NCBI GenBank assembly: GCA_963788655.1
Contig: CAWBHS010000062.1
Coordinates: 64,001 to 128,000 of the forward strand
Origin: an uncultured Verrucomicrobiae bacterium
GTDB lineage: Bacteria > Verrucomicrobiota > Verrucomicrobiia > Limisphaerales > JAFGQR01
DNA length: 64,000 nucleotides
Direction: 5' to 3'
The translations under genes and the position numbers were made by a program. Positions 54,971 through 63,744 of the stretch are shown piece by piece (position 1 is the stretch's first letter; each line of letters opens with the position of its first letter). The notes under the pieces are model-generated. The model had not been told where the DNA came from and did not search any database. It saw nothing but the letters and a program-made list of their open reading frames with translations.

Positions 54971-57900
54971 TCACCGTGAATTGGACTGGGTAACGCGCAG
55001 CGGCACGGCCAGTTCGCCGGTGGCCTTTCCCTCGGTGAGCAACTCGATATGAATACGCGCTTCTCGGGCGGCCGTCGATGCCGGAGCTTGCACGATACAC
55101 TCGATTTGCTGCTCCGTGATTGGCTTCAGCGTCGTCTGCCATAACCGCGGGGCCTTCACTCGGAGCGACGGAGCCGTTACTGCTTCACCGTTCAGAGTAA
55201 ACACTGCGGTCCCGCCTTCGCTGATGGTCGGCGGGGCCGATTCCAACCGCAGCGCCGAGGCTGCCAGCGCCTTCGCCAATCCGTTCTGTGCATCCGCATA
55301 GAGCAGCATCAATGGCTCGGCGGAGACCGTAAGACTGAGGCCGCCGGCCGCGCTTTGCAGCCGGGTGCGGTCGCCGTCCACGTGGACCACCTCGACGGCC
55401 AGGTTTGCCGGCAGCGGCACGCGGATGTCGGTCCTGCCCTCGTCCCGCCACAGCACTTGCAGGCAGCCGCCTCGCACATCGCGAAACAGGTACGCCTGGA
55501 CACCGTTGGGATACTGTTGCTCCTCGACGAACTTCTTGTCGCAGATCCCATTGACCAGATCGTAATACGTGATGGCATCCAGGCGCGGATTGTAGAGGTT
55601 GTATTTGCAGTCGAAGACACAATGCGAATCGCCGAACTGGCCGCGCGCCTTGCCTTGGGGATCGGGATATTGAATCGTAAACCAACTGACCGTCGAGCCT
55701 CCCGCGGCGAAGAACACGGTGAACTTCTTGATCATCTCGAGGGCCACGGCATGCCGGGTTTGCCCTTGGCTGTTCAGACCGAGTTCGGTGGAATGAATCG
55801 GTTTCACGGCGTGATATTTCTCCATCAACGCCCGGTATTCCCGGATGGTTCGGCGCACGTTCGAGTAGTGTTCGTAGATGTGGAAATCGTAGGCGTCGAG
55901 ATAGTTTTGATAGCCAGCCTTGAAATACTCTTCATTCGGTTCGACGGAGGTTCCAATGACGTGGATGGCGGGATCGAACGCTTTGACGGTTTCATAGATG
56001 GCTCGGTAGGCGCGGACGTTATCAAGAACCTTCTGGCCGGTGCCATGCGGTTCGTTGCCCATGGCGATCATGGCCAGCCCCTTGTTGGCGTATTGCTCGA
56101 GAAAGTTCTTCATTCCCTGTCGCAGCGATTCTTCGGTGTATTCCTTGAAACCGTCCCGCTCGATACTGCTGGCGGGCGTGCCGGTGATCCATTTGGCGCC
56201 CAGTTTTTGGCAACGGTCGATGCCCGGGCCCTGGGGTTGGTAAGGTGGTTTGGCGGACCATCCTCCCCAAACGCCGATCTGGCGCAGCCCCAGCCGATCA
56301 GCCAGATCGAAGTAAACGGGAATTCGGCTGTCCCAGTTGCGGATGGTGAAAGGAATCTGCTCTGGCGCGAACTGCTTGCTGATCGCCGGCGGCAGGATGG
56401 CGAAGCCCGAGTATTCCACCTCCGCCGTGTCGCCTTCCTGCGGAATTGCCACGTGCAACTCGTAATACTTGCCCACCCGAAGCCGATTGTTCGGGATCGA
56501 GATTTTCGTGGCATAAACAAATTGCTTCCCGTCACCCTTGGTTCGCTCGAGCTTGGCCTCGCCTGGCTCCAATTGCTCGGCGCCCCAATAATCCCGCACG
56601 AAATACCGCATGACCTGTTGCGCCGTCGGCAGTGGTTTGGCCGCTTCCACCGTCACTTTGAATTGGACGGGACCGCCCGGCAGAAACAGGTTGCCCACTG
56701 CCTCCGTGGCGAGTTTGATGCGCTCGACCCGCTTCTCAATGGGCCCGGTGCTCAACGGAGCCGCCGCAAGGTCGTCCAGCCAGAAGGAACCGTAGGTCTT
56801 GCGGAGTTGAACGCGGAATCTGGCCTGCGCGGCTCCCGTGGGCAGTGTCACCGTTTGCGTTGCCGTTTGCCAATCGTGTTCGCCATACCCGATTCCCACG
56901 GGAATGGTCTCCAACACCGCGCCCGCCCGATTGAAGGCTTCGAGATCAACGCTGCCGTGATACGAGTTATCCGGACTGTGCAGTTTCGCTTTCCACGCAT
57001 ACTGCACCTGCCAGGTTCCCGGACCCACGGTGAAGATCGGGCTGGCGGCCCAGGTCGCGGTCGTCAGCGCGTTCAATGAACGTTGCAAGAGCAGCGCCTG
57101 ACCCTGGCCATTGCGGCCTGGGCCGTCGGGTCGGACTGCGCCGGCGGTTTGCCAGTTGGCCAGGGATGCCGCGGCGTCGAAGGTTTCGGTGTACGCGGCT
57201 GGTTTGATTCTGGCTTCCACCACCACCTCCGCGCGCAGATCAGCGATGAGCAAATCGGGTTGCTTGCCCGCGTGCGATTCAATGTTCAACATCAGTTCCA
57301 TGAGGCGGACGGAATCGTGCCAGACGCCGTCATTGGCGCCGCCCCAATGTTCGCTGCCCGCGATCCCGGTGGGAACAATCTCGACCTCATGCCATTGGCC
57401 ATCAGCCTGAAACGGGATGTTCTTCCGCTGATGGCATTGGTCCGTGCCATCGACCAGCCGCAACGCAAACGAGGAAACGGTTTTCGAGCGCAGCTTCATG
57501 CGGATGACTTTGATGGCCTGAACGTCCAATGCGGCGAATGATTTCCGCACGCCGACATAGGCGCCGCCGCCGGTAAAATCCGCGTGCAGGCGCATGGCGT
57601 TCTGGCCGGGTTCCGGTTGATCGCGAACCAGGTCAAGACTCCCTTTGGCGCCGGCGAATTCCTGGCCCAAGTTGAAGCCCCAGTCCAATTCGCCGGCCTG
57701 GAGCATTTCATCCAGGCGAATCTCTTTGGTGAGCGCCGCCAGCCTGGTGGTGCTGGGGTGCAGCAACACGTCGCTGATCAATACGGTTCCGTTGGTGCCG
57801 AGGTTCCGGCTGAACAGAATGACGAACAACCGACCGGGCTGGTGCCACTTGCCGTCGTTCGCGCCGCTCCATTTTTCGTATTGGGTGGCAATGTCGAGCG

Positions 57901-58363
57901 CCGCCGGCGTGCCCATCGTTTTGAAATATTCCTCGACCGGCAGGACCAACTGTTGCCAGCCGCCCTTTTCGTGAATCTTGAGCCGGATCTGATGGACTTG
58001 TTCGGAACCATCCACCAGCCGGATGGTCAGTTGCTTGGCGCCAGTCGGACAGTTCACCCAAAACGAAAGCGCCTCCACGGGCGTCTCCGGCAGAACGATC
58101 GAGGCCTCGACGTAGTTGCCGCCCTGGGTAAAATCGCCGGAGAGACTCAGGACCGGGTGATCGCGAAAAGGCTCGGCCGCCAGTTCGAGTTTGCCGCGGG
58201 CACCCGGAAACTCGGGGCCATTACCGAATTTCCAACCGCCGGCTGATTGGTGGGCATCGATGAGCGAAACCGGTTGCTGCCCGAGCGCCACGCTCGCCAA
58301 CAGCGGAATGATGCAGCTTGCCAGGCAATACTTCGACCGCGTGCAAAAGGAGGATTGTGTCAT
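54971..58363 (-). CDS. Secreted multidomain glycoside hydrolase (two CIA30/CBM11-like, one CBM4/9-like, clan-A GH39/GH5-like barrel)
   Basis: Repeated W.F..G.EF.GA.G.L..DFT.GG.YV domains; GNEP acid/base, DFHIY and HSTELG nucleophile motifs. Confidence 0.75.
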   Translation of the reverse strand: MTQSSFCTRSKYCLASCIIPLLASVALGQQPVSLIDAHQSAGGWKFGNGPEFPGARGKLELAAEPFRDHPVLSLSGDFTQGGNYVEASIVLPETPVEALSFWVNCPTGAKQLTIRLVDGSEQVHQIRLKIHEKGGWQQLVLPVEEYFKTMGTPAALDIATQYEKWSGANDGKWHQPGRLFVILFSRNLGTNGTVLISDVLLHPSTTRLAALTKEIRLDEMLQAGELDWGFNLGQEFAGAKGSLDLVRDQPEPGQNAMRLHADFTGGGAYVGVRKSFAALDVQAIKVIRMKLRSKTVSSFALRLVDGTDQCHQRKNIPFQADGQWHEVEIVPTGIAGSEHWGGANDGVWHDSVRLMELMLNIESHAGKQPDLLIADLRAEVVVEARIKPAAYTETFDAAASLANWQTAGAVRPDGPGRNGQGQALLLQRSLNALTTATWAASPIFTVGPGTWQVQYAWKAKLHSPDNSYHGSVDLEAFNRAGAVLETIPVGIGYGEHDWQTATQTVTLPTGAAQARFRVQLRKTYGSFWLDDLAAAPLSTGPIEKRVERIKLATEAVGNLFLPGGPVQFKVTVEAAKPLPTAQQVMRYFVRDYWGAEQLEPGEAKLERTKGDGKQFVYATKISIPNNRLRVGKYYELHVAIPQEGDTAEVEYSGFAILPPAISKQFAPEQIPFTIRNWDSRIPVYFDLADRLGLRQIGVWGGWSAKPPYQPQGPGIDRCQKLGAKWITGTPASSIERDGFKEYTEESLRQGMKNFLEQYANKGLAMIAMGNEPHGTGQKVLDNVRAYRAIYETVKAFDPAIHVIGTSVEPNEEYFKAGYQNYLDAYDFHIYEHYSNVRRTIREYRALMEKYHAVKPIHSTELGLNSQGQTRHAVALEMIKKFTVFFAAGGSTVSWFTIQYPDPQGKARGQFGDSHCVFDCKYNLYNPRLDAITYYDLVNGICDKKFVEEQQYPNGVQAYLFRDVRGGCLQVLWRDEGRTDIRVPLPANLAVEVVHVDGDRTRLQSAAGGLSLTVSAEPLMLLYADAQNGLAKALAASALRLESAPPTISEGGTAVFTLNGEAVTAPSLRVKAPRLWQTTLKPITEQQIECIVQAPASTAAREARIHIELLTEGKATGELAVPLRVTQSNSR

Positions 58364-58417
58364 TTCACCACCGAATTTGAAGGCGGACCGTAATCGAATC
58401 AAGGTTATTGGCTCACC

Positions 58418-58519
58418 TCACGGCACCGTGGTGGCGGTCTCGGCCTGCCGGCGCTTCAGCGCGTCCACCTCCGCTTGCAATGCGGCCAACTCGGCCACAA
58501 TCCGGCGTTGCCGCTTCAT
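58418..58519 (-). repeat. hsdS C-terminal fragment, copy 3
   Basis: MKRQRRIVAELAALQAEVDALKRRQAETAT; its ATG overlaps the stop of the upstream gene. Confidence 0.8.
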
Positions 58520-59028
58520 GTTTGATTCTCCTTTGAATACTGCCACAAGGCGCGGTCCAGTATCCGCATTGAAGCATTGGCCTGTTGGACGAGACTGCGG
58601 CAGAATTCGGTGTATTTCTGCCAAAACTGAAAGTCGTATTGTTTGGGGACATCGTGGTTCAGAGACCACAAAGCGCGATAATCTACAATGGGATACGGGT
58701 CTGAATGGAAAAAGTGGAGAATCACGGATGCCGTGGGCCAACTGACACCCCTCAATAGCGTCAGCACCTCTATTCGTAGCTGGTCCGAAGGCGTGCTGAG
58801 TGCGCAATGCGTCACATCCCTGATAAAGTCCGCAGAGTTTGTGCGGCAGCGCGGTTGCGTGCGGGGCGACTTCCAATGGCAAATCGCGATGAATTCATCC
58901 TTGATAAGAAAGCCTCTCTGCTTGACTGCTCCAAAGACAGAAAGGGCTGCCTTATCGTCATACTCATAACGCTCTGCCCAGTGCTCAATTTCTCCAACAG
59001 GAAACCTCAATTGGAACGCTGTGCTCAT
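58516..59028 (-). CDS. HhH-GPD superfamily-like protein
   Basis: WKSPR, LRGVSWPTASVIL, YPIVDYRA and RILDRALW motifs. Confidence 0.65.
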   Translation of the reverse strand: MSTAFQLRFPVGEIEHWAERYEYDDKAALSVFGAVKQRGFLIKDEFIAICHWKSPRTQPRCRTNSADFIRDVTHCALSTPSDQLRIEVLTLLRGVSWPTASVILHFFHSDPYPIVDYRALWSLNHDVPKQYDFQFWQKYTEFCRSLVQQANASMRILDRALWQYSKENQT

Positions 59029-59093
59029 AGTTCTCTTTTGAAGGCGCGGTCGAGGATGGCGGAGAGGAATGCGTCCAACTCGGCGCTGATCAT
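59025..59093 (-). repeat. hsdS C-terminal fragment, copy 2
   Basis: AELDAFLSAILDRAFKREL*; its stop overlaps the next ATG (ATGA). Confidence 0.8.
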
Positions 59094-59127
59094 GCGCTGC
59101 GCATAAATTGGAATTTAGGTTTTTTGT

Positions 59128-59969
59128 TCATTTAATCATCTTCCTTCTCGCATTCGATGGTTGCTTGCCCAGCTTTTTCAAAATCAGCTTGGCAAACTCA
59201 ATCGGGGTTTCGTCTTTTAGAGAGATGTGTCCGACTGTATGTGGTATGCCCGGTAATTCTGTTTCGTCGAAATATGCAGGCAAGATATATTCTTTGCTTT
59301 CTTTCAACGCTCTCGCCAGAGCTGAACGGCGTTCATGTCTCGTCCACATTTTCTTGGCGTAGGATTCTGAAACAAAAATAGCGCAATATTGGCCTGATTG
59401 CTGATACACTAAGTCGAAGTGCTCGGCCAGATCTTTTCCCCAAAGGTCTGCTTGTTCGAATCCGTCGTAGAAAACTCTTACGTCATTCGAACGAAGATAT
59501 TTCGCCACGCGCTCTACATATTTGCGGTCCTCTCCCGCGAAAGACAGCACCACGTCATAAGTCCGGTGAAGTCTCGACAGCATCGCTGTCGGAAGGTCGC
59601 CGTCCTTTACGGCCCAATGGGTGCGGTTAAACTCCCAGTTATGAATGCCAAGCCGATCAACAAATTCACGCACGACCGCCCTTGAAAAGCACCCCTCCTC
59701 ACTGAACTTGAAGGTCAATTCTTGGCGGCCGACCTTAATCTGTCGCAAGTAACCGCAACGAACGATGTCGGTGTTCGGACCTTCAGTGGTAGCCTCATAC
59801 ATCAACAAAGCAGGGACGTGCTCCAACTGCTTCAAGGAGGGGAGATTGCTTATTACTACGGACTCCGCCTCAGGGCCATCGCTGAACTCCTTGAACCTCA
59901 CCAGTTCCATCTCATCAGTTGGTCGGTTTCCCACGCCGTTGGATTCGATGTTACAAGTAAGCTAAACAT
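59128..59969 (-). CDS. TIR domain protein with N-terminal RTHWAVKD domain; frameshift near 59912
   Basis: MFSLLVTSNPTAW N-terminus in the adjacent frame; TIR motifs YDVVLSFAGEDR, VFYD..LWG and WTRHE. Confidence 0.85.
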
Positions 59970-59972
59970 AGG

Positions 59973-60098
59973 TCATAGATTTCCTTTAAAGGCGCGGTCG
60001 AGGATGGCGGGCAGCAACGGATCCAACTCGGTGGCGGTTTCGGCTTGCAGACGCTTGAGCGCGTCCCCCTCCATTTGCAGATCATGTAGTCCTTTCAT
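59973..60098 (-). repeat. hsdS C-terminal fragment, copy 1 (41-aa mini-ORF)
   Basis: MKGLHDLQMEGDALKRLQAETATELDPLLPAILDRAFKGNL*. Confidence 0.8.
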
Positions 60099-60145
60099 TT
60101 AGTAAAAGGCCCTCGTGCTATTTGCTTTCCGCACGAGTGAACGCC

Positions 60146-60221
60146 GAAGGCTGAAGGCTGAAGTTCTCCCGTCTCGTGTCACCAGTCTGTTTTCAGCATT
60201 TAGCATTTATCCTTTAGCCTT
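60146..60221. repeat. Heptamer (GAAGGCT/TTTAGCM) hairpin
   Basis: Opposing tandem 7-mer arms. Confidence 0.65.
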
Positions 60222-60410
60222 GTGTCCGCAGGAAATTGGCGTTGCACGCAGCCCACCGACTTCAGCGGCAGGAATCCAGACTGCTTTCCCGTTGCGCCAT
60301 CCGGCGAGCGGCCTTGACTGCCGCCGGTGTTCTTCCACGACCTTGGCCACGGCGCCACTCAACGCCTGCATGGCCTTCTGAGTCAGAGATGATTTGTTTG
60401 ATTTCTTCAT
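60207..60410 (-). CDS. Small hypothetical protein
   Basis: ATG start; AMQAL..AV..VVEEHRR..PLAGWRNGKAVWI. Confidence 0.6.
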   Translation of the reverse strand: MKKSNKSSLTQKAMQALSGAVAKVVEEHRRQSRPLAGWRNGKAVWIPAAEVGGLRATPISCGHKAKG

Positions 60411-60663
60411 GGCGCAAACTCACGCCGCAATTGTTCGTTCTTCCTTCGATTGCTGCCCAGATATGCCTGATTCTGTTGGCCATTCAAGCCTATTCGAAAT
60501 TACCAAACCCTGGCGCAGCGAGCCTGTTTGCCTGCCGGGAGTGCAGAGCGCCAGGACAAGTCTCCCCGCGTGGGCAAACGGGCGGCCAGCCAGCAGGATT
60601 TGTGGCGCACCAGGGTTCATCATTGTCAATTAGTTGCCTCGTTCGTAGCTTGAAAAACGAACA

Positions 60664-63600
60664 ATGCATGGGCCGGAACAACAACTGCGTTTGCTTACCG
60701 CCGCCGATTGTGAAGTGCGCTTTGACAATCTCACGCGGCAGCTTTACGCCACCGACGCTTCGATTTACCAGGTCGAACCGCTGGGCGTGGCTTTTCCGCG
60801 AAGTGCCGCGCAGGCGGCCTCGGTGATTCAGGCAGCGGCTGAGGCGGGCGTATCGGTCATTCCCCGGGGCGCCGGCAGCGGATTGGTCGGTGGGGCAATT
60901 GGCCATGGCTTGGTGGTCGAGTTTTCCCGCTACAATCGGCAGATCACCGATCTGAACCTGGAGCAGCGCACGGTGAACGTGGGCGCCGGAGTAGGTACTG
61001 GACCAGTTGAACGCGTTCCTCAAACCGCACGGCTACGGTTTCGGCCCGGACGTGGCCACCAGTTCGCGCGCTACGTTGGGCGGCATGATTGCCAACGATT
61101 CCTCCGGCGCGCGGACGCCGGTTTACGGCACCACCGCCGAGCATGTGCGATCGCTCGAATTGGTGCTGGCGGATGGCCGGGTGGAAACCACCGGCTCACA
61201 CGGCGGCACGTTGGCGCCGCTGCGAGAATTCGCCGACCAATTGATACGCCACCATGCTGCCGCCATCGCCGAACGGATGCCCGCCGGGGTTGTTGAAACG
61301 CTGGCCGGGCTACGGCATCAGCCGGTTGTTGCGGGAACCGGGTAACTTGCACCACGTGCTGGCGGGTAGCGAAGGCACGCTGGCAGCCATCATGTCGGCG
61401 GAACTCCGAATCGTTCCTTTACCCCGTGCAAAAGGGCCTCGGCGTCGTGTTCTTCGCTTCGATTGCCGAAGCCATGCAGGCCACGGTGGAATTGCTCGAA
61501 CTCAAACCCGCGGCCATCGAGCACGTGGATCGGGTGTTGTTCGATCAAACGCGCGGCCAGCTTCAATTCCAGGCCGCGCGCGATCTTCTCGAATTGGAGG
61601 CCAAGCCGTGCGAGGCCTTTTTGATCGTCGAATTCTACGACGAAGCGACCGAACGATTGCAGGCGCTGGCGAAAAAGAAACTGGGTTTGCGCACCCGGCT
61701 CGTAAATACCCCTGCGGAAATGGATCTCGTTTGGGGTTTGCGCAAGGCCGGGCTCACTTTGTTGACCGGTCGTCCCGGGCCCGCCAAGCCGGTGACGGGC
61801 ATTGAGGATGCCGCCATTCCGCCCAAGCATTTGCCCGAATATGTTGCCGGGTTGCAATCCCTGCTTAAACCGTTGGCCGTGACCGCTTGCTTCTACGGTC
61901 ATGCGGCTGCGGGGTTGCTCCACGTGCGGCCCGTGCTCGATTTGCACCAGGCGGAGGACTTGCGGAAGTTCCGTCAAATCGCGGACGAGGTTGCCGCGCT
62001 GGTACGGCAATTCAAAGGTTCCCTCTCCGGAGAACACGGCGTTGGCATGGCGCGCACGGAATACTTGCGCGAACAACTGGGCGCGGAAGTCTTCAGGGTG
62101 ATGCGCGAGATCAAGCGAACATTTGATCCGCGGAACGTCTTTAATCCGGGCAAGGTGGTGGGGACGGATGAGGAAGAGGTCGAGGCGGATGCGGGCTTTG
62201 CGAGCGGTTCCAAGGCTTCTGCCGACGAGACGTCGGCACAAACGACGGACAGAGCGTGTTCCGCTACGGACGGAAGTCGGACGGCGCAGCGCCTGTTCCA
62301 AACTGCCGGCAAGATGCCGGCAGCACGTTGGGCGGACTACCGGATTGATCGGCATCTGCGGATGGGCGCGGGTTACGAGTTGAAGCTGCCATTCGAACCG
62401 GAGTTGGCGTTCGCCGCCAAAGACCACTCGTTCGTTGGCAACCTGGAGCAGTGCAATGGGTGCGGTGGCTGCCGCAAGGAAACGCCCACCATGTGTCCGA
62501 CGTTTGTCGCCACCGGCGAGGAAATCATGTCCACGCGCGGCCGGGCCAACACGATTCGCGCCGTGCTGGAACAACGCGGCCTCACCGGCGTAGATCCGTT
62601 GCAGTCGGCAGAGTTGGAAGCCGCCCTAAGCAATTGTCTCTCGTGCAAAGCCTGCACCAAAGAATGCCCGTCCAATGTAAACCTGGCCTTGCTCAAGGCG
62701 GAATTGCGGTACGCGCGGCACCGACGCGATGGTCTGCCACTGCGGGTGCGGTTGATCAGTGCGGTGGACTTGCTGGGCCGGTGGGGGTGCCGGATGCCCG
62801 CGTTGGCCAATGCCGCCCTGCGTTGGCGGTGGCTGCGCTGGCTGATGGAGAAGACATTGGGATTCTCGGCGCAACGCTCGTTGCCCACCTACGCAGCGGA
62901 ACGGTTTGATGATTGGTTTGCCCGCCGGACCGCCACGCCGCCAGCGCATCGCGGCCCGGTCATTTTGTGGGATGACACGTTTGTGCGTTACCATGAACCG
63001 CACATCGGCCAAGCGGCGGTGGCCGTGCTGGAAGCGGCCGGCTTTGAAGTGATCCTGCCGCGAGGCCGCCAATGTTGCGGTCGGCCCGCGTTCAGCCAGG
63101 GAAACTTGGACGAAGTGAGGCGGCTCGGGCGGCACAATCTGGATTTGCTGAAAGACCCGGCCACTGAAAGCGGCAACGGGACTCGGCGGAAAATGCTTGA
63201 AGGCAGTACCGGCCAAATCGCTGGCATCCTCGGGAAGGCCGACGTGCCCATTGTGTTTCTCGAACCGTCCTGCTGGGCCATGTTCAAGGAAGATTACCGG
63301 GAATTGAAATTGGCCGGGGCAGACCAAGTAAGCCCGCGGTGTTTCCTGTTCGAACAGTTTATCGAGGATCTGCTAAGCCGCGAACCGGAGGCTTTACGGT
63401 TCAATCAAGTGCCGGGAACCATTGCCATCCACGCGCATTGCCACGCGAAATCATTGATGAATCCCGCCTTTATGGCCCAGTTGGCGCGCCGTTTGCCAGC
63501 GCGTAACGTAACGCTGCTGGACACCGGCTGTTGTGGCATGGCGGGCGCCTTCGGCACCCTGGCCGCCAAGTATGAACTCTCCCGGATGGTCGCGCAACCG

Positions 63601-63744
63601 CTGGTGGACCTGCTTCAACAGCAACCCGCGGGCAGCGAAATTGTGGCTTCCGGCACCAGTTGCCGTCACCAAATCAGCGATCTCACCCCGGCGCATCCCA
63701 AGCACTTGGCGGAGGTGCTGGCCGCCGCACTGGCGGCCGATTAG
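60664..63744 (+). CDS. FAD-binding and Fe-S-binding oxidoreductase (GlcD/GlcF fusion, YdiJ-like), frameshifted three times
   Basis: LYATDASIYQ, PRGAGSG, TLGGMIANDSSG, GSEGTLA, SGEHGVG, CNGCGGC, CLSCKAC and CCG motifs across ORFs 60664, 61007, 61254 and 61426. Confidence 0.9.

Follow-up and report, generated by a model that had tools for sequence, protein, structure and literature searches.

Orphan hsdS ends and their cargo in a low-GC islet

The window analysed here, a 64,000-nucleotide (nt) stretch of a contig from an uncultured Verrucomicrobiae bacterium of the order Limisphaerales (contig CAWBHS010000062.1, positions 64,001 to 128,000, herein referred to as C62), contains a low-GC islet (58350..60450) between a glycoside-hydrolase-like gene and a FAD/Fe-S oxidase gene. 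Within the islet, three minus-strand copies of the 3' end of hsdS, the gene for the specificity subunit in restriction-modification (RM) systems of type I, alternate with two protein-coding cargo genes. The GC content of the islet (~58350-60450) is 0.42-0.55, compared with 0.59-0.67 in both flanks. An earlier reading made from the letters by themselves (herein the sequence-only reading) had described three such tails alternating with two AT-richer genes, and the open reading frames (ORFs), the repeat alignments and the GC content of the islet bear this layout out. Throughout, labels beginning with L denote examined loci and those beginning with G denote genomes; nearly all of the compared genomes are metagenome assemblies, and gene calls are longest-ORF calls.

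Read in the direction of transcription, the first tail (c1; 59973..60098, minus strand) is a 5'-truncated orphan copy of the C-terminal conserved region of HsdS (CR2) that retains the stop codon: an ORF of 41 amino acids (aa) ending DALKRLQAETATELDPLLPAILDRAFKGNL and then stop, which is matched by the PADLOC Specificity_I model PDLC03194 (E 2.8e-4) and by our tail profile (E 4e-21). The second CR2 copy (c2; about 59025..59100, minus strand; QRMISAELDAFLSAILDRAFKREL and then stop; tail profile E 6.3e-4) is more than a 3' piece, since it opens with the first residues of the helix (QRMIS, the counterpart of QRRIV); it is without about 66 nt between two internal AELDA(L) repeats, and this internal repeat also yields duplicated and hybrid tails among public proteins (P0122 and P0123). 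The third (c3; 58418..58519, minus strand; MKRQRRIVAELAALQAEVDALKRRQAETATTVP and then stop), recognised from its ORF and sequence and by the tail profile (E 5.4e-7), has an intact 5' start (QRRIVAEL...) and is cut short on its 3' side. Aligned with one another, c1 and c2 are 83% identical over 59 nt, c1 and c3 84% over 50 nt and c2 and c3 76% over 33 nt.

Several comparisons show that the window tails are HsdS-derived CR2, as the sequence-only reading had held. PADLOC type I specificity profiles match both c1 and c3, with the c1 match falling at the C-terminal end (profile positions 353-391 of 391), and tblastn of c1 against plasmids returned four records, the three annotated ones of which are named S subunit or specificity protein. 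Intact HsdS of relatives ends PLAEQRRIVAELDALQAEVDALKRLQAETAAELDALLPAILDRAFKGEL and then stop, which is CR2, the C-terminal conserved region after the second target recognition domain (TRD2), and the window tail sequence is near-identical to CR2 of the intact hsdS genes at L110-L113. Pfam reports no domain in c1 or c3, because its Methylase_S models target the TRD, not CR2. The window pieces are fragments of hsdS, not genes, and the remainder of the RM system is missing around them, again as first described: there is no Methylase_S, N6_Mtase or HSDR_N match on contig C62 (genome totals 6, 14 and 11), that is, no hsdS body, hsdM or hsdR, and tblastn with five intact HsdS proteins found no TRD remnant in 57000-61000 and nothing outside CR2. 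In a tblastn of this genome with the three peptides, no close copies were found beyond the locus, only distant tails of other hsdS families on contigs C26 and C100. The idea of a tail site dispersed across this genome was rejected, as the tail family is confined there to one locus.

Two of the junctions between tails and cargo are as the sequence-only reading gave them, with the stop of c2 lying over the ATG of the second cargo gene and the stop of that gene lying over the ATG of c3; both junctions read ATGA. The third is not. The ATG at 59969, 3 nt past the c1 stop, had been taken as the start of the first cargo gene, but it opens only a 23-codon frame, which closes; the frame of the first cargo gene opens after the TAG at 59964-59962, its first possible starts are GTG 59934 and ATG 59910, and the gene begins 38-62 nt, not 3 nt, from c1.

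The first cargo gene (59128..59934, minus strand) encodes a 268-aa protein in which an uncharacterised N-terminal part of ~120 aa precedes a TIR domain (PF13676 TIR_2, E 7.8e-16, residues 128-250). It matches PDC-S66 (E 5.1e-17) and ThsB (E 7.1e-7) in PADLOC, and a W-x-x-x-E motif (WTRHE) is visible, the glutamate of which may be the catalytic residue. Relatives within the order cover the TIR domain only, the best at 61% identity over residues 101-260; such matches occur in 18 of 351 order genomes, and among the 11 loci retrieved from these none has a tail, so that no c1-TIR unit was found among them outside the window. PADLOC took its PDC candidates from cassettes that lie inside BREX, DISARM or type I RM systems, as the consulted part of the source describes (Payne et al., bioRxiv 10.1101/2024.01.29.577857).

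The second cargo gene (58516..59028, minus strand) is intact and encodes a 170-aa protein that is full length when set against an alignment of 26 relatives. It belongs to a large uncharacterised family of at least 1386 clusters, without a Pfam domain or informative name. Its AlphaFold2 model (pLDDT 94.5) suggests a weakly HhH-GPD-like fold: the top Foldseek matches are all glycosylases of the Ogg, AlkA or EndoIII type, all weak, and the best match in the PDB (3knt_A, E 1.8e-3, TM 0.53, 15% identity) is weak as well. Scanning 92 of the 146 nearest neighbours of this family, across 80 loci, recovered five UDG-superfamily genes, Mrr in two loci, McrBC, HNH, a type ISP enzyme and PLD, together with TIR-NACHT, SIR2, Fic-HSP70, several transposases and integrases, and housekeeping genes, and hence the family is a frequent resident of defence or mobile neighbourhoods. 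The UDG-superfamily gene is the upstream neighbour of the 170-aa gene in 5 of 66 scanned cases (L032, L033, L069, L074 and L094), which hints at a shared role in base excision. Both the TIR gene and the 170-aa gene are probably functional.

Tails, arrays and shared modules in other genomes

To place the window among its relatives, we scanned 301 genomes sampled across the phylum and 351 sampled across the order with a tail profile of 14 rows, which recognises a single hsdS family and is hardly informative beyond the order. The profile matches 7 of the 301 phylum genomes and 74 of the 351 order genomes (E<=0.01), so that the tail, as the sequence-only reading required, is by no means confined to the window; it is found with other cargo, and arrays of it occur also in Anaerolineales. 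The 68 strong rows (E<=1e-5; originally 69, the row of the unpublished G610 being left out) divide into 23 in frames of at least 350 aa, seven in frames of 150-349 aa and 38 in frames below 150 aa (two of the last at contig edges); over half of the strong tail matches in the order are orphans. At least two tail matches within 4 kb are carried by 16 contigs. The 20 contigs studied closely, which were chosen for short frames or multiple tails, hold 39 tail matches, of which seven lie in ORFs with a recognisable TRD. Public proteins of 31-100 aa include 1412 clusters with the tail, many of them annotated at source as "type I restriction enzyme S subunit"; several are on contigs of 50-480 kb, and many others are on contigs shorter than 1 kb and may be simply cut. 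Orphan tails are also found on a contig of 3.6 Mb (G636:C2).

Many of these tails stand in rows with unrelated genes. At locus L020 (G005, a relative placed in a different family of the order), one strand holds a half-HsdS in which TRD1 is joined to the tail, a Zn-dehydrogenase gene, a full-start frameshifted tail, an SPFH fragment, a truncated tail and a lipoprotein gene. L086 (Anaerolineales) packs eight tails into 4.1 kb, with a 175-aa gene, a pentapeptide-repeat gene and two membrane-protein genes between them. Among the 80 loci with the 170-aa family, tails adjoin the gene in five: L027, L039, L077 and L086, found by the profile, and L026, whose tail is weak by profile and clear in alignment. 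L077 reads intact HsdS, HEPN, tail, 105-aa gene, 359-aa gene, tail and 170-aa gene; L027 reads tail, 359-aa gene, 170-aa gene, tail remnant, dCTP-deaminase-like gene, tail and DUF3800. A fixed two-gene system of the 359-aa and 170-aa genes was considered and dropped, as the 359-aa gene of L077 is unrelated to the one that stands ahead of the 170-aa gene in L027. An intact or half hsdS heads the arrays at L110-L113, L077, L107 and L020. Two further genes near hsdS or its tails were recorded: at L119 (G575:C24, 2904-3518, on a 6.9-kb contig that may be a small replicon or an integrated element carrying the tail), an orphan full-start tail has, two genes downstream, a gene for a replication-associated protein (REP_ORF2-G2P, E 3.2e-5), and at L110 (G373:C459, 9128-9490), a 23S_rRNA_IVP four-helix-bundle gene lies directly upstream of hsdM in an intact type I operon.

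The cargo of these arrays is mixed. The sequence-only reading spoke of an array of defence genes, a description that applies to some of the cargo only: 10 of 51 proteins from other arrays match PADLOC (E<=1e-5), including PDC-S11, PDC-M41A/B, PDC-M03A, SoFic and HEC-01A, and a few more have defence-like Pfam domains (HEPN, PIN7, DUF3800), whereas a Zn-dehydrogenase, an SPFH protein, an aldo/keto reductase and a PQQ propeller look metabolic or structural. The term "defence cassette" therefore fits the cargo partly. An all-versus-all BLASTP of 69 cargo proteins found few recurring ones, namely the 170-aa family, a Fic protein (L116/L117) and a small gene duplicated within L113 only.

Further sharing surfaced only when the arrays were compared by DNA and tblastn rather than by protein BLASTP. 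Five tail/cargo modules are shared between arrays, and the neighbours differ in every pair: a truncated tail with a 217-aa gene (L107/L106, 63% aa identity, with homology running from the tail through to where the gene stops); a 111-aa gene with a full tail before it and a truncated tail after it (L106/L112, the first of these tails in L112 being that of an intact hsdS, as its end); a gene of 393 aa (L114/L118) and one of 180 aa (L113/L115), each lying between tails; and an aldo/keto reductase (L107/L026). The window takes part in a comparable relationship, as the block formed by c2, the 170-aa gene and the start of c3 is common to the window and L026 at 73% nt identity with unrelated flanks. 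In a three-way alignment at one L106 tail, L112 is matched upstream, all three loci align inside the tail and L107 is matched downstream; this switch of kinship places a recombination junction inside the tail. The portability that the sequence-only reading ascribed to the tail is supported elsewhere, where tails bound variable cargo, modules recur and a junction falls within a tail, but not in the window's own genome, which has the single locus.

The tails themselves retain the imprint of protein-level constraint. When full-start tails are compared between families of the order, most pairs agree at 88-94% of their DNA, against only 69-74% between the neighbouring FAD oxidase gene and its relatives, and all pairs of full-start (F) tails taken together show 485 synonymous against 148 non-synonymous codon differences; F1 and F2 of L107 are separated by seven synonymous changes and one non-synonymous change, and two L086 tail variants differ at 12 of 36 nt and at only one aa. 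Truncated tails carry more replacements than full-start tails. Repeats within an array are 76-84% alike in the window and 85-94% alike in other arrays. Since neighbouring tails differ mainly synonymously, they descend from different, once-functional hsdS alleles and not from duplication in place. A recurrent variant of the tail was also noted in at least six genomes, in which ...LQAETAAEL... becomes ...LQAES(R/G)RGLHP.L... and the extra DNA contains a short GC-rich palindrome, GCAGGC-N3-GCCTGC (L020 8480-8440; L108 4154-4291 and 5334-5387; L115 5500-5607; L118 765-815; L124 2568-2681; L026 ~640-700).

One way to produce such tails is decay in place: deletions would have stripped the TRDs, hsdM and hsdR from a single ancestral type I RM locus that held embedded genes and several copies of hsdS, and the tails would be leftovers that play no part in moving genes. 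Traces of this kind of loss do exist. At L021 (G004:C43, 7766-8137), one open frame runs from the N-terminal part of hsdM, 85-87% identical in nt to its counterparts in L110 and L112, straight into an hsdS tail, a deletion having taken out most of hsdM and everything of hsdS but CR2; an old tail at L113 still has ~100 aa of TRD2, and after it comes a small gene that is 56% identical to the one behind the live hsdS; the first tail and cargo of L106 match the 3' end of the intact L112 hsdS locus; and an internal deletion between repeats explains c2. Decay alone, however, does not produce the same modules with different neighbours or a kinship switch inside a tail; the cargo is AT-richer than both tails and flanks, the tails within one array differ mainly synonymously, and multi-hsdS loci, in the published accounts consulted, use inverted copies. 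We therefore consider it improbable that decay in place explains the arrays.

The regularity of the arrays invites a different explanation, namely that a dedicated recombinase, its gene lying elsewhere, uses the tail as its attachment site in the way that IntI uses attC. The arrays in the window, L086, L107 and L106 are co-oriented and consist mostly of single-gene cassettes with one repeat each; there is no other mobility gene inside the arrays; and the repeat has a sharp 3' edge, most clearly in L086, where homology among the tails stops exactly at the hsdS stop codon. At the 5' edge, however, the L086 tails begin either at the helix start (EQRRIV) or at varying internal points, the same two classes are found in the order, and this variation from copy to copy is not what a fixed site would give. 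Folding of three tails on both strands (six folds) was no better than that of 200 shuffles each (z -0.81 to +1.44). The sole Phage_integrase match on C62 (26316-26843; 20 matches genome-wide, the model being general and not IntI-specific) lies 96 kb away, outside the window, and no recombinase recurs next to the arrays examined, only L108 having a resolvase fragment. The repeat is moreover a coding sequence conserved for protein reasons. A site-specific system is thus very unlikely, and the integron-like mechanism of the sequence-only reading fails on the same grounds: with no folding of the tail, no nearby integrase and varying 5' edges, the array is not an integron in mechanism.

Origin and persistence of the arrays

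We favour, at a probability of roughly 0.6, an origin by accretion: an array would have built up behind a type I hsdS gene, and the locus would be its relic. In the hsdS family concerned, accessory genes sit directly after the hsdS stop codon, and the last ~45 codons of hsdS (CR2), being nearly the same DNA in many genomes, would offer an anchor for recombination. A recombination event in CR2 would bring in a new module of tail plus gene and leave the previous tail stranded downstream, and unequal exchange between tails could then reshuffle, stack or delete modules. In the window, two modules would survive, tail-TIR and tail-170-aa gene, followed by the stump of a third tail, with the hsdS body, hsdM and hsdR either lost or never transferred. 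The comparisons show that the tails are CR2, that orphan tails and arrays of them abound, that the same modules turn up in more than one array and that one tail contains a junction; on this footing, homologous (RecA-type) recombination would be the engine, and the direction of events is likewise read from sequence. The tails may persist partly because their translation feeds the next gene through the stop/start overlap.

Such overlaps are frequent on both sides of the tail. Overlaps of 1-4 nt between a tail and the next gene occur at at least nine junctions (window c2, L026, L039, L077, L020 B, L086 t1228, L107 F2, L111 and L124), and in four of these (the window, L026, L039 and L077), which span two phyla, the gene that follows is the 170-aa gene. 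On the upstream side, the stop of the preceding ORF overlaps the ATG of a mini-ORF consisting of a few codons and the whole helix in seven cases (window c3, L026, L020 B, L086 t2564, L107 F2, L109 and L106), the preceding ORF being a cargo gene in six and a short ORF in L106. The stop/start overlaps on which the sequence-only reading based translational coupling are therefore well represented at tail-cargo and cargo-tail junctions alike; the coupling itself we infer from them.

These junctions would also be expected if the tail were a working small gene or coupling element, acting as a translational relay via ATGA or as a helix that binds resident HsdM or HsdS. Besides the seven overlaps into tails and the nine or more out of them, full-start orphan tails differ from intact hsdS tails by 0-3 non-synonymous and 5-9 synonymous codon changes, and no minus-strand terminator was found inside the window's array in a scan of 58200-60800, a scan that was itself uninformative (no promoter-like and two terminator-like sequences, both on the plus strand and fewer than in shuffles). 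However, frameshifts, truncation or heavy substitution mark many of the tails (c3, L020 B, L086 t4150, L107 P3 and L113 P), the synonymous excess may date from time spent inside a functional hsdS, and gene callers list only ORFs with starts and so give a biased sample of tail leaders. We regard this explanation as unlikely, if less so than decay or a dedicated recombinase; it is compatible with accretion behind hsdS, and both can hold.

Several observations weigh against accretion. The main point that it leaves unexplained is the full-start tail with its own ATG on a cargo stop (the seven cases above), because displacement predicts truncated tails after cargo. The window has no head hsdS, hsdM or hsdR, and its history is therefore drawn from other genomes; its tails, 76-84% alike and partly decayed, are old and give no sign of recent activity. 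The sole same-genus relative is without the tail or the locus, and so there is no pair of genomes to contrast for presence and absence. The 20 arrays studied were picked for short frames or multiple tails and are not a random sample, and some "orphans" are possibly frameshifted hsdS genes.

The surroundings of the islet and the quality of the assembly bear on a further concern, that an assembler joined pieces of different genomes at a shared tail. The window's genome is an assembly of 115 contigs, 86% complete and 5.6% contaminated, with several broken frames, so that some short frames may be sequencing errors; together with an islet GC unlike that of the flanks and tails that are 88-94% identical between genomes, this makes a chimera conceivable. 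The window tails, however, share at most ~22 identical bases in a row, orphan tails also sit on the 3.6-Mb contig, and the modules shared with other assemblies are diverged (63-79%), whereas chimeras would be identical. An artefact is thus highly improbable. Two soil runs from one study (9% and 7% of sampled words) gave short fragments only, with no bridging record or joint: two 151-nt pieces identical to the TIR gene, one identical 250-nt piece at 60358-60605, and pieces of 35-73 nt at less than 95% likeness on the tails, at 58523-58559 (the 3' end of the 170-aa gene) and at 59396-59430 (TIR).

When the 4-kb locus was searched in 40 relatives, the FAD oxidase gene alone was conserved (69-74% DNA identity), and the glycoside-hydrolase-like gene and the islet did not adjoin it. 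In the window, this FAD-linked oxidase/Fe-S/CCG gene (60664-63744, plus strand) is split over at least three overlapping frames (60664-61296, 61007-61345 and 61426-63744), whereas in the same-genus relative it is one ORF of 999 aa (L019 5777-8776), and in tblastn the N-terminal part aligns across two frames. Either the gene is a pseudogene, or an indel error arose in assembly. Several hsdM matches in the window's genome are likewise fragmentary. At the head of the islet, two small minus-strand ORFs of 35 and 67 aa (60099..60410) have no Pfam or PADLOC match, and their membership of the array is uncertain. The 67-aa ORF (60207-60410) has no family match either, its DNA is 72-80% conserved in G012:C22 and G004:C103 of the same order, a 32-nt match (91%) is present in G020:C90, and no tail lies beside any of the three copies; it may be a small conserved gene.

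A broader proposition, which we put forward tentatively and on balance doubt, is that the ~130-nt hsdS end is the currency of an integrase-free gene-cassette system in several phyla, supplying both the homology with which host recombination would insert, stack, swap and excise single genes downstream of type I RM operons and, when translated as a short leader, a ribosome hand-over to the promoter-less next gene. Were this true, orphan tails would mark cassette cargo much as attC sites do, and "guilt-by-tail" would offer a route to new defence genes, such as the 170-aa glycosylase-like family. Were the mechanism to hold, it would be a second way, after integrons, to build cassette arrays, one using host recombination only; it would account for the high turnover behind hsdS and provide a cheap marker for accessory and defence genes in uncultured bacteria. 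Each orphan tail would then be the record of one past recombination event, and modules of tail plus gene could be traced between genomes. The window alone is a modest finding, an old relic with two cargo genes.

Relation to known systems

In full-text searches of the literature, no account emerged of hsdS tails that flank foreign genes as direct repeats. The genes that lie within type I RM loci (PrrC, TgvAB and the PDC and HEC candidates) are, like the cargo here, co-oriented and placed behind hsdS (PMC11411939; 10.1101/2024.01.29.577857); unlike them, the window has cargo without an RM system. The consulted parts of these two papers say what is embedded, not how it arrived, and in the main text of Payne et al. 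(10.1101/2024.01.29.577857), supplements aside, the terms "hsdS", "recombination" and "remnant" are absent.

Two other systems involve direct repeats or hsdS itself. Insertion with long target duplication, as set out in the part of Furuta et al. 2010 that we consulted, also places RM-linked genes between direct repeats longer than 30 bp with no mobility gene; there it is the RM system that is inserted, between near-identical copies of one target (43/46 to 49/49, Table 2), whereas the repeats described here are 76-94% alike, differ mostly synonymously and stand in series, and the relatives searched offered no empty site. Shuffling of TRDs in hsdS likewise uses conserved hsdS helices as recombination substrates; in the accounts consulted, TRDs are exchanged to give new specificity, and the repeats are often inverted and served by an invertase (PMC3077401, PMC7672463, PMC7394358). 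In the arrays described here it is foreign genes that are exchanged, and the repeats are direct.

Integrons resemble the arrays in layout, with co-oriented rows of mostly single promoter-less genes, one repeat to each, and a content that varies between genomes. They differ in that the arrays are without a nearby intI or a folded site like attC, and the repeat, a fragment of a protein gene, has a 5' edge that is not fixed.

For Rhs arrays, the consulted part of the source proposes homologous recombination with circular intermediates (Jackson et al. 2009, PMC2935791), and the likeness to C-terminal displacement in Rhs and contact-dependent inhibition (CDI) systems extends further: a conserved 3' coding stretch provides the homology, newly acquired ends displace the old one, and rows of dissociated ends result, each with a piece of the conserved stretch and its own partner gene (PMC2935791). 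Unlike in Rhs, the variable part here consists of whole unrelated genes past a stop codon and not of a protein end, the conserved stretch is ~130 nt and not kilobases, and many arrays, the window included, are without a head gene. We know of no counterpart in Rhs/CDI arrays to the full-start tails with their own overlapping ATG. The Rhs-type layout, a full-length head gene followed by orphan 3' pieces, is nevertheless found at L110-L113, L077 and L107, though not in the window, and the arrays share with Rhs the trait that each orphan piece moves together with the partner gene behind it, recombination taking place in the conserved stretch.

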